Shown piece after piece: positions 2,784 to 4,566 of a stretch of DNA of 64,000 bases; within the stretch, counting starts at the first letter, position 1, and the number at the start of each line of letters is the position of its first letter. The position numbers and the translations under genes are program-made. Source of the DNA: a virus; the IMG/VR virus record IMGVR_UViG_3300032296_002019, positions 35,489-99,488 of that record; one strand, written 5' to 3'. The notes beneath the pieces are model-generated. The model was not told the origin of the DNA. It saw nothing but the letters and a program-made list of their open reading frames with translations, and ran no database searches.

Positions 2784-2815
2784 GAGAAAGGGAGTAGAAA
2801 CTCCCCTTCGTTTTT
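2783..2815 (-). terminator. hairpin terminator downstream of tmRNA
   Basis: GGGAGT-TTCT-ACTCCC stem (2790-2805) flanked by pyrimidine/T tracts. Confidence 0.6.
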
Positions 2816-2839
2816 CCTAACCTTAACCTACCTTTTGAG

Positions 2840-3349
2840 TGGAGATGGTGGGATTCGAACCCACGTCTCCGAAAGAGACAATAATACTAACGTCTCACAT
2901 GCTTAGTACTAATTAGTGTTCGTCTTACGTTAGCTCAACGAGTCATTTCGTAAGCTGGTACGATACTAATCTGCACCGTAAGAGGCCAACCGTATAGATC
3001 GGGGTCCACCACCTTGTTTTATGACTACAAGGAAAACTTTTGTTAGTGTTTCGCCCCCTATATCACTAACTAAGACGCTCAAAGTCGGCTTTGACCATTA
3101 AGGGAGCCCTCAATCCACAGTCCTTATTTAACGAGTCGATCGTGAATACTCAGAGTAGTTCTGTTCCTAGGTTACTCACCCGACGCGGACTAGGCTGCTA
3201 CAGCGTAGTCGGCACCAACGAAGTCCATAAGATCTTCGAAGGTCATTGTTGACATTTCGTCATTTACTGTTTGGTATCTTCTAAGGCAGTATACCCAAAT
3301 GCCTGCATGTAGTATTACCTCTGCATCCGGATCGATACCGGTCATCCCC
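2840..3349 (-). ncRNA. ssrA: tmRNA, 510 nt
   Basis: 5' GGGGATG pairs with 3' CATCTCC(A) including the G3.U alanine determinant; T-arm GTGGGTTCGAATCCCAC; tag frame after TAAAT at 3261-3190 encodes DEMSTMTFEDLMDFVGADYAVAA*; CCA not encoded. Confidence 0.93.
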
Positions 3350-3552: not shown

Positions 3553-3584
3553 AAAAAAATCTGGCGGGAATACTGATTACCCGC
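3553..3584 (-). terminator. intrinsic terminator closing the unknown RNA
   Basis: GCGGG-TAATCAGTATT-CCCGC followed by CAGA and TTTTTTT. Confidence 0.65.
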
Positions 3585-3860
3585 AACCCCTGGACGGACC
3601 CCTTTTCACCCATAGTCCACAAAGATGATCAGTCCTTGTGTTGAGACTAGCTGGATTGACTACCAGCAACGCCTGCGGAGATCAGTTGCAATTTCTTCGG
3701 CGTATCCAGAGCACTGTTGGGTTGCGCATTCTACCCTTAGTGATGGTGGTTTTAACTCATCCGTCTGTGATACCCAACTCAACAGCTTTTCAGCTATCTC
3801 GCCAGTGCTTTAGCAGCTCTCAACCGCTTATTCAGCCACAGTTTTTCTTAAAAGAACTTC
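3553..3860 (-). ncRNA. unidentified GC-rich multi-helix structured RNA (~290-305 nt)
   Basis: No coding-strand ORF of 60 aa or more; much more GC-rich than flanks; nested stems GTTGAGA/TCTCAAC, AGCACTG/CAGTGCT, TTGGGT/ACCCAA, AGCT-GAAA-AGCT, ACGCC/GGCGT, GCTGG/CCAGC, CACAAGGA/TCTTTGTG; own promoter motifs and terminator. Confidence 0.72.
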
Positions 3861-3899: not shown

Positions 3900-4211
3900 T
3901 TAAATATTTTTTTTGTTGTAGTTATCTAAATGTTTTTGAGCCCTAGCACATAGTTCGTAATTTTCGTATTTAATTAGGTTTTCCATGTTTGTATCTAGAG
4001 TTTCATAGAAATTGTAATAAGAAGCATGTAATGTTATTGTATGTATCTTAGTTATTATCTGGGCTATGGTTACTCTCTTTAAGTCATTCTCTATAGCATA
4101 GCATATCTTTTCTACAATAGCAGTAGACAATCCTTCTTCATGTTCTGCCATTATATTTGCAAAAGTCATATCATTATCTAGAACTTCTATTAAATACAAA
4201 TCAGAATCCAT
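3900..4211 (-). CDS. hypothetical protein with C-terminal UVR-like motif
   Basis: ENYELCARAQKHL; apparent paralog of 5655..6017. Confidence 0.6.
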   Translation of the reverse strand: MDSDLYLIEVLDNDMTFANIMAEHEEGLSTAIVEKICYAIENDLKRVTIAQIITKIHTITLHASYYNFYETLDTNMENLIKYENYELCARAQKHLDNYNKKNI

Positions 4212-4566
4212 ATTTCTCCCAAATTTTATAGTACCAATCTAATATAAATTTAAGATCTTCAATACTAGTTTGACCTTTTAATGAGTCAATATATTGATCG
4301 CATTTATTTATTTCATTATTTAGATTTCTAATATTGTCGCTTTTTATTGTCTTTCTATCAAAGAAGTCCTTCTTTTCTTTTAACTTTTCTTTTAGTATAG
4401 GGATTTTTTTATCAGCCTCATTCTTTAAAATCTCCTCTTTAGATTTATTAACCATAAAAGCAGTGAGACCAGAAGCTCTTCCAGAAAATCTAAGCAGAGA
4501 ATCAGCTTTATCTTTTACTTTTAAAAGATCATCAGCCATTTTATCTATGCCTACTTTCCTTTTCAT
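4201..4566 (-). CDS. hypothetical protein
   Basis: 121-aa ORF overlapping both neighbours. Confidence 0.6.
   Translation of the reverse strand: MKRKVGIDKMADDLLKVKDKADSLLRFSGRASGLTAFMVNKSKEEILKNEADKKIPILKEKLKEKKDFFDRKTIKSDNIRNLNNEINKCDQYIDSLKGQTSIEDLKFILDWYYKIWEKYGF

Follow-up and report, generated by a model that had tools for sequence, protein, structure and literature searches.

A phage family of one-piece tmRNAs with a long conserved tag and apparently exchangeable RNA modules

Results

A one-piece tmRNA gene in a large phage genome

The window, by which we mean the whole 64-kb stretch of DNA analysed here, is the final part of a 99.5-kb IMG/VR virus record with an estimated completeness of 57%. 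Nearly all of its genes lie on one strand, and they include those for a tail sheath, a family A DNA polymerase (PolA), a GroEL-type chaperonin, a ribonucleotide reductase (RNR) and a DnaB-type helicase, together with glycosyltransferases and a collagen-repeat fibre. Its nearest isolate is Flavobacterium phage immuto, with 56% identity in PolA and ~45% identity over half the length of the sheath; no tmRNA was found in this phage.

A real tmRNA gene of the standard one-piece form, from an uncultured freshwater phage, lies on the minus strand of the window (Table 1). The Rfam tmRNA model RF00023 matches positions 2837–3349 along its complete length (model positions 1–374) with 59.6 bits (E 8e-21), above the gathering score of 47 that sets membership by covariance model. 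Counted up to the discriminator A, the mature RNA has 510 nt, and its 7-bp acceptor stem, including G3.U, and its T-arm and T-loop are intact. A sequence-only reading made before our analysis had placed a tmRNA with tRNA-like ends and G3.U at the same coordinates, and had proposed Infernal with RF00023 and ARAGORN as checks. The first, as described, scores above threshold over the whole model; ARAGORN did not call the gene at default or lowered thresholds, returning either nothing or spurious permuted calls.

Two other gene forms were considered and rejected. For the permuted, two-piece form, RF04321 gave sub-threshold scraps of 14.8–18 bits against a cut-off of 47, and the standard gene order is intact. 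For the intron form, the group I intron model RF00028 gave no match between positions 2500 and 3700 at E values up to 5, and the T-loop runs without interruption. The terminator-like hairpin beyond the 3' end makes it probable that the tmRNA forms its own transcription unit.

Several neighboring features deserve mention. Just upstream of the tmRNA, a GC-rich, ORF-free segment (3554–3856, minus strand) matches the manA motif RF01745 over its full length at a sub-threshold score (29.4 bits, where the cut-off is 55.2; E 1e-5), and may be a divergent manA-like structured RNA adjoining the tmRNA. Just downstream, positions 1811–2722 of the minus strand encode a protein of 303 aa that contains a thrombospondin type 3 repeat and, below the Pfam cut-offs, weakly matches reprolysin-like (M12B) metallopeptidases. 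Genes for tRNA-Met (CAT) and tRNA-Leu (TAA) lie on the tmRNA strand ~2 kb before the window start (G000:C1:32961–33437).

Table 1 Features of the tmRNA locus in the window (RNA numbering runs 5' to 3' along the mature tmRNA)
Feature	Window positions	Strand	Remarks
Terminator-like hairpin, then T-rich run	2786–2809	-	31 nt past the tmRNA 3' end
One-piece tmRNA gene, complete	2840–3349	-	RF00023, 59.6 bits; ends from acceptor pairing
T-arm (2848–2864) and acceptor 3' strand (2841–2847)	2841–2864	-	discriminator A at 2840
Helix 2, 3' strand, RNA 448–481	2869–2902	-	conserved; served as tag-independent scan pattern
Hairpin immediately ahead of the helix 2 return strand, RNA 374–444	2906–2976	-	4-bp base in common with relatives
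Module B, hairpin extension	2910–2972	-	lengthens a stem that in relatives ends in a GNRA tetraloop after 2–3 bp
PK3 region common to normal-sized relatives, RNA 314–372	2978–3036	-	aligns with L042, L022 and others
Module A, pseudoknot-like, between PK2 and PK3, 70 nt, RNA 239–308	3042–3111	-	absent from L042
Pseudoknot PK2, RNA 199–237	3113–3151	-	two interleaved stems in the sequence
Helix 5 hairpin with stop codon inside, RNA 156–184	3166–3194	-	5-bp pairing, partly conserved in the family
Tag frame, DEMSTMTFEDLMDFVGADYAVAA	3190–3261	-	resume codon GAC 3259–3261; 23 sense codons; stop TAG 3190–3192
Pseudoknot PK1, RNA 46–77	3273–3304	-	stem 1 covaries in the family
Helix 2, 5' strand, RNA 20–45	3305–3330	-	pairs with 2869–2902
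Acceptor stem, 5' strand, RNA 1–7, holds G3 of G3.U	3343–3349	-	pairs with 2841–2847

Probable dependence on host factors

As the sequence-only reading had stated for the window, smpB is missing: we detected no SmpB domain in the window, the full 99-kb record, two complete relatives (174 and 169 kb, genomes with terminal repeats) or three further relatives, and host SmpB would therefore be needed. The gene also lacks CCA, the discriminator A being followed directly by CTC, and a search for a phage CCA-adding enzyme found none; maturation would thus depend on the host. In the searches for ClpP, SmpB and CCA-adding enzymes, a single ClpP-family gene appeared, in one relative (G409), where it could be a head-maturation protease.

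Clustering of the genes around 111 tmRNA loci revealed no protease, unfoldase or adaptor gene consistently near the tmRNA. The commonest neighbor occurs at no more than 39 of the 111 loci, and the commonest neighbors have no Pfam match. As the tmRNA is not accompanied by a phage gene for a protease or adaptor, genomic context lends no support to a special fate for tagged proteins.

A family of related tmRNAs in uncultured phages

Scanning viral contigs with a degenerate tag pattern gave 55 contigs with nearly the same tag, a sample biased by the pattern itself. A second scan, which for this reason used a pattern that lies in the helix 2 return strand and avoids the tag, showed that at least 119 IMG/VR contigs carry related tmRNAs; an exact 5'-end pattern had no match among viral contigs. 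So far, the family is known only from uncultured, mostly freshwater phages. Many relatives that could be read as split genes proved mostly to be ordinary intact tmRNAs with variant T-loops.

The 108 complete, intron-less members have a median length of 385.5 nt and range from 307 to 510 nt. The window tmRNA is the longest of them, followed by copies of 504 and 492 nt, in line with the earlier description of the RNA as oversized; the spliced RNA of one intron-bearing relative reaches 511 nt. Two apparent members of 567 and 589 nt (L129 and L135) had false 5' ends and were dropped. Oversize is a recurrent trait of the family, the same hairpin being expanded in many relatives, and nothing in the family data ties it to the tag.

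ARAGORN detects 77 of 93 unique relatives and misses 16, including nearly all family members of at least 435 nt (missed loci include L019, L128, L130, L156, L173, L191, L206 and L213, besides the window). Size is thus the likely reason that the window gene was missed, and probably explains why large phage tmRNAs stay unannotated in viral catalogues.

Upstream sequences fall into more than one kind. In about half of the family, a conserved AGTTCTTTAA motif lies 6–8 nt ahead of TAT|GGGG at the tmRNA 5' end, and comparison of 40 nt of upstream sequence places the window among variants of this type. Other members have TATATTTG/TATATTTA ~20 nt upstream of the 5' end, resembling the Bacteroidota -7 box.

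Conservation of the tRNA-like domain, helix 2 and pseudoknots

In the family alignment, all 93 unique relatives have G-C at acceptor pairs 1 and 2, and 90 have G.U at pair 3. Relatives were delimited by a 7-bp acceptor stem with G3.U and a paired T-stem, so only the window's own acceptor stem is independent evidence, and for the T-stem, paired in all 93 with up to four pair types per position, covariation is the informative part. Counts beyond acceptor pair 3 are low in the family table; this is an alignment artefact, as every relative was chosen for a paired acceptor stem.

Pairs of the T-stem, H2a, H2b and H2d are kept in 92–93 of the 93 relatives at nearly all positions, and the T-stem and main helix 2 segments show two to five pair types per position. 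The short H2a2 segment (three pairs) and the first H2b pair are paired less consistently (32–68 relatives). PK1 stem 1 is paired in 75–93 of the relatives, with A-T/G-C and C-G/G-C exchanges; its stem 2 is visible in the window sequence, the corresponding family counts being blurred by alignment. Covariation among phage homologs, another check proposed from the sequence alone, is thus present in the T-stem, H2a, H2b, H2d and PK1 stem 1.

The standard form has three further pseudoknots (PK2–PK4) from the tag to the return strand of helix 2. PK2 is clear in the window, and most relatives alignable over it retain its stem pairs; on inspection of the alignment by eye, L044 shows an apparent exchange of CAC/GTG for CCC/GGG. 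The PK3/PK4 region is defined by alignability with relatives rather than by a pairing scheme. A minimum-energy fold of all 510 nt fails to give the tmRNA architecture and was set aside.

Two inserted modules enlarge the RNA

We took L042 as the reference for the excess length, as this 387-nt tmRNA from a complete 174-kb genome is the nearest relative of normal size. The window tmRNA exceeds it by ~125 nt, in two separate insertions. The sequence-only reading had described one extra domain of ~100 nt at ~2905–3003, containing ATTAGT/ACTAAT and CTTACG/CGTAAG stems. Extra folded RNA is indeed there, and these stems fall within the insertion that we call module B, but positions 2978–3003 belong to the ordinary pseudoknot region, and the second insertion, module A, had been missed.

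In module A, two 7-bp stems can interleave, the first loop containing a 6-bp hairpin (in RNA numbering, stem 1 243–249/291–297, inner hairpin 256–261/266–271 and stem 2 280–286/302–308). A double 7-bp pseudoknot also arises in 297 of 5,000 shuffled sequences (5.9%), which is not significant alone, and the case for the module therefore rests on homologs. Most relatives lack it. Three other loci (L180, its metagenome twin L215 and L214) have it at the corresponding position, giving four loci and three distinct sequences with the window's included. In these loci module A is 84–94% identical, compared with only 40–52% for the flanking tmRNA; the differences are mostly compensatory, affecting three hairpin pairs and one stem-1 pair, and the loops do not vary. 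Module A has no match in Rfam, and a search for its core in 401 sampled genomes of the phylum to which G006, an uncultured Bacteroidetes MAG, belongs did not find it.

Module B extends a hairpin that in short relatives consists of a 4-bp base, an A/A mismatch, two to three more pairs and a GNRA tetraloop, and whose base covaries between subfamilies (GTGC/GTAC versus GATC/GATC, as seen in the alignment). Many relatives carry unrelated extensions of 25–120 nt at exactly this point. One relative, L124, has module B itself, at 91% identity and with a compensatory change of the apical stem from CTC/GAG to CCC/GGG.

The extra domain is thus real, yet consists of two modules with separate histories, and each looks to be an exchangeable part of the pseudoknot ring. 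Most likely, the extra length, with module A as a fifth pseudoknot-like element and module B as a longer hairpin, only enlarges the ring and leaves the basic mechanism unchanged.

A long tag with a conserved peptide sequence

The frame from GAC to TAG agrees with the unusually long, acidic tag of 23 encoded residues that had been read from the sequence alone, about twice the bacterial norm. It ends in A-V-A-A followed by TAG, and the stop codon sits inside the 5-bp hairpin of helix 5. Ahead of the resume codon, position -5 is U and position -4 is A, as in the E. coli tmRNA. By comparison, the commonest tag length in a tmRNA database of 97,179 sequences is 10 (PMC11915505).

Among the matches listed from the tag-independent scan, the same tag type, with 22–24 residues, is present in 88 of 96 unique complete tmRNAs. 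In relatives found in this way, entropy summed over the 16-codon core is 7.0, 4.4 and 14.6 at codon positions 1, 2 and 3, respectively, and the mean residue entropy of the core is 0.67 in frame as opposed to 1.26 and 1.21 out of frame. This concentration of variation at third codon positions shows that the tag peptide is under selection, and is the signature expected of a translated tag. The residue at the resume codon varies (Asp, Val, Ala) and its first base is almost always G, with AAC in one of 27 unique 23-codon tags; for most of the 77 relatives that ARAGORN detects, its independent prediction agrees in resume codon and tag type.

The tag appears to have two parts. Its last seven residues, with their Y-A-V-A-A end, look like an ordinary bacterial non-polar degradation tail. 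Its first 16 residues are acidic, with Phe, Leu, Met and Val at intervals, are specific to the phage family, and are as strongly conserved as the C-terminal degron-like end. No ORF of the whole record has a tag-like tail or the tag core.

These properties bear on the possibility that the RNA is mainly a decoy that titrates host SmpB or blocks host trans-translation, its tag frame going unused, a role also proposed for a molecule of mycobacteriophage DS6A that has only the tRNA-like domain. A tmRNA from a phage without SmpB must compete for the host protein, and a DS6A-type molecule inhibits tmRNA (PMC4131195, PMC11915505). A decoy, however, needs no conserved peptide, and third-position variation is seen in relatives that were found independently of the tag; moreover, the RNA retains a full message part with its stop codon, as well as PK1 and helix 5. 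We consider such a role very unlikely.

A different question is whether the first 16 residues act as a functional peptide rather than a degradation signal, one that would stabilize, localize or aggregate rescued chains or recruit a ribosome factor, in combination with a module A that would bind a protein or small ligand to regulate the tmRNA. The strong conservation of these residues would fit the first proposal. For the second, the contrast between module A and its flanks and the constancy of its loops are suggestive, and a riboswitch inside the tmRNA gene of phage Melnitz provides a precedent (PMC9004378). Against them stand the canonical non-polar A-A tail, which is still present, the failure to find a partner gene, the lack of an Rfam match for module A and its absence from most family members. 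On balance, this combination seems unlikely.

Comparison with tmRNAs of the likely host phylum and other cellular tmRNAs

The host of the window phage is probably a member of the Bacteroidota, as suggested by one cultured relative, an upstream motif and an intron subsite: Flavobacterium is the host of the nearest isolate, a TAnnTTTG-type motif stands ~20 nt ahead of the 5' end in some family members, and group I introns of relatives lie after the second U of the T-loop. This position (subsite 3) in tmRNA genes is reported only from the class Bacteroidia (PMC11915505).

The sequence-only reading had noted that host-lineage tmRNAs of the same length and with the same tag would speak against it. 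Ten sampled tmRNAs from the likely host phylum have 368–402 nt and tags of 9–10 residues of the G-E-N-N-Y-A-L-A-A kind. A search for the tag core in 185,579 prokaryote species, each represented by one genome, gave 14 matches, all inside protein genes and none in a cellular tmRNA; as several residues are fixed in the pattern, it could miss a host version that has diverged. In the genomes searched, a host counterpart of the same length and tag was thus not found. When the RNA was compared by BLAST with the 401 genomes from the phylum of G006, matches covered almost only the T-arm and acceptor end, with two listed matches reaching back to position 443.

Could the gene nevertheless be a recent capture of a host tmRNA, for example by imprecise excision at an ssrA attachment site, that has no phage-specific role and bears the tag of an unsampled host? 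tmRNA genes often serve as sites of integration (PMC11915505, PMC9004378), the assignment of the window phage to a host phylum is a probable one, and IMG/VR classes one relative as a provirus. Recent capture is nonetheless hard to reconcile with a family that spans several synteny groups of viral contigs, with a tag core found in no cellular tmRNA of the 185,579 species genomes and with similarity to the 401 genomes from the phylum of G006 almost confined to the T-arm and acceptor end. The gene is also complete rather than a fragment, and no integrase context was seen nearby. We regard capture without a phage-specific role as highly improbable.

Discussion

The best explanation of these observations, to which we assign a probability of roughly 0.75, is a functional one-piece phage tmRNA that depends on its host and appends alanine plus 23 residues, including a phage-specific stretch of 16, to stalled chains. 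Host RNase P and 3' trimming would process the RNA, the host would add CCA to its 3' end, and host AlaRS would charge it with alanine through G3.U. The charged tmRNA would then work with host SmpB on stalled ribosomes, where translation would restart at GAC and alanine followed by the 23 encoded residues would be appended to the stalled chain. The window tmRNA has each of the sequence features that charging and the templating of a tag require; we infer that it would be aminoacylated, use host SmpB and tag chains, and that the 16 extra residues would give tagged chains a fate beyond that provided by the host's 9–10-residue tag. Our best guess is that the 16-residue stretch could serve as a second determinant, additional to the C-terminal tail, for a protease or adaptor. 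The sequence-only reading had also proposed that the phage re-routes trans-translation, that the FEDLMDF stretch could dock a phage or host adaptor, and that the RNA may stand in for host tmRNA lost to defence nucleases; for these proposals our analysis yielded neither favourable context nor opposing evidence.

Long tags of Mollicutes, also about twice the usual length, offer a model for the 16 extra residues. Gur and Sauer reportedly found in 2008 that these tags (~27 residues) are degraded by Lon. In Mollicutes, whose cells lack ClpXP, residues inside the tag, beyond the last few, carry the protease determinant. By contrast with the phage family, the Mollicutes tmRNAs are cellular, and their tags have no sequence similarity to that of the window.

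Among the closest known systems is the bacterial one-piece tmRNA (SsrA, RF00023) of the Bacteroidota type, which shares with the window tmRNA the tRNA-like domain with G3.U, helix 2, PK1, a resume codon starting with G, a Y-A-x-A-A tag end, helix 5 and, probably, the pseudoknot ring. The window RNA differs from it in its length (510 nt as against 368–402 nt, n = 10), in its 23 rather than 9–10 encoded tag residues and in being phage-borne without smpB, with DNA similarity almost limited to the T-arm and acceptor end.

Phage tmRNAs as such are already known, in the mycobacteriophage Bxz1 group and Bacillus phage G (PMC4131195). Of all sequenced phages, ~2.3% carry a tmRNA, with two-piece forms in marine myophages (Melnitz and the pelagimyophages; PMC9004378). 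Like these, the window comes from a large phage of lytic type that has a complete ssrA gene and lacks smpB. Two-piece tmRNAs of the Melnitz type group with tmRNAs of cellular lineages (PMC9004378), whereas no cellular counterpart was found for the tag of the window family. In 50,697 GenBank phage records, blastn with the window RNA gave no match, and neither did tblastn with the tag, which is weak evidence given a query of only 23 residues.

One isolated phage does have a comparable RNA. In Cellulophaga phage phi14:2 (NC_021806.1, ~4031–4500; locus L216), ARAGORN finds a tmRNA of 470 nt, in which a long open frame precedes the tag as called. It scores below the Rfam gathering threshold and is unannotated, the region holding only removed 'hypothetical protein' features. 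Like the window tmRNA, it belongs to a phage of a flavobacterial host, is oversized and has a long frame ahead of a hydrophobic, A-ending tail; in contrast, its tag is unrelated, and its genome is of the crAss-like, podovirus type rather than the myovirus lineage of the window. Oversized, long-tag tmRNAs thus also occur in isolated phages of flavobacteria.

More broadly, the features of the family may be joined in a single reading, which we put forward as tentative and on the whole doubtful. In it, phages of Bacteroidota-type hosts would have a tmRNA lineage of their own, in which the tag extension sets the fate of tagged chains and the pseudoknot ring is a platform for module swapping. Instead of plain decay by ClpXP, the extension would direct chains to a different protease or an adaptor, or to protection or sequestration, and module A, with its 70 nt and invariant loops, could be a regulatory element that binds a protein or ligand.

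The literature that we searched contained nothing on a phage-only tag family or on tmRNA module exchange. There are several implications. First, phage tmRNAs are usually regarded as borrowed host genes of unclear use, whereas in at least 119 uncultured phage contigs we find a tag of about twice normal length, conserved as a peptide and without a cellular counterpart in the genomes searched. Whether phages rewrite the fate of stalled-ribosome proteins during infection thereby becomes a testable question. Second, the pseudoknot ring of tmRNA tolerates and apparently exchanges structured modules. Finally, a standard annotation tool misses the larger members, leaving these genes unannotated in viral catalogues.

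The family also contains variants of other kinds. A minority of members (L130, L138, L169, L176, L180, L202 and L211) combine the same tmRNA scaffold with a second, unrelated tag type of 26–29 residues, in which a conserved I-N-M-A-F-A-N-like stretch precedes an A-L-A-A end. Group I introns (RF00028, 96–98 bits) interrupt the tmRNA genes of L015 (7691–8488), L016 (13094–13371, the same as L043) and L180. The intron site in L015, L016/L043, L180 and L211 is in the T-loop, past GGGTT and after the second U; for L211, only the split T-loop was seen. The L015 intron, of ~800 nt, contains on its opposite strand a 198-aa ORF without a Pfam match. Intron-form tmRNA genes with the same T-loop position, subsite 3, have so far been described only from chromosomes of Bacteroidia (PMC11915505); in contrast, the intron copies here are in phage contigs, and the window gene has none. 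In L059, which has only 307 nt, and in L066, a premature stop or deletion has shortened the tag, and these two may be decaying copies.
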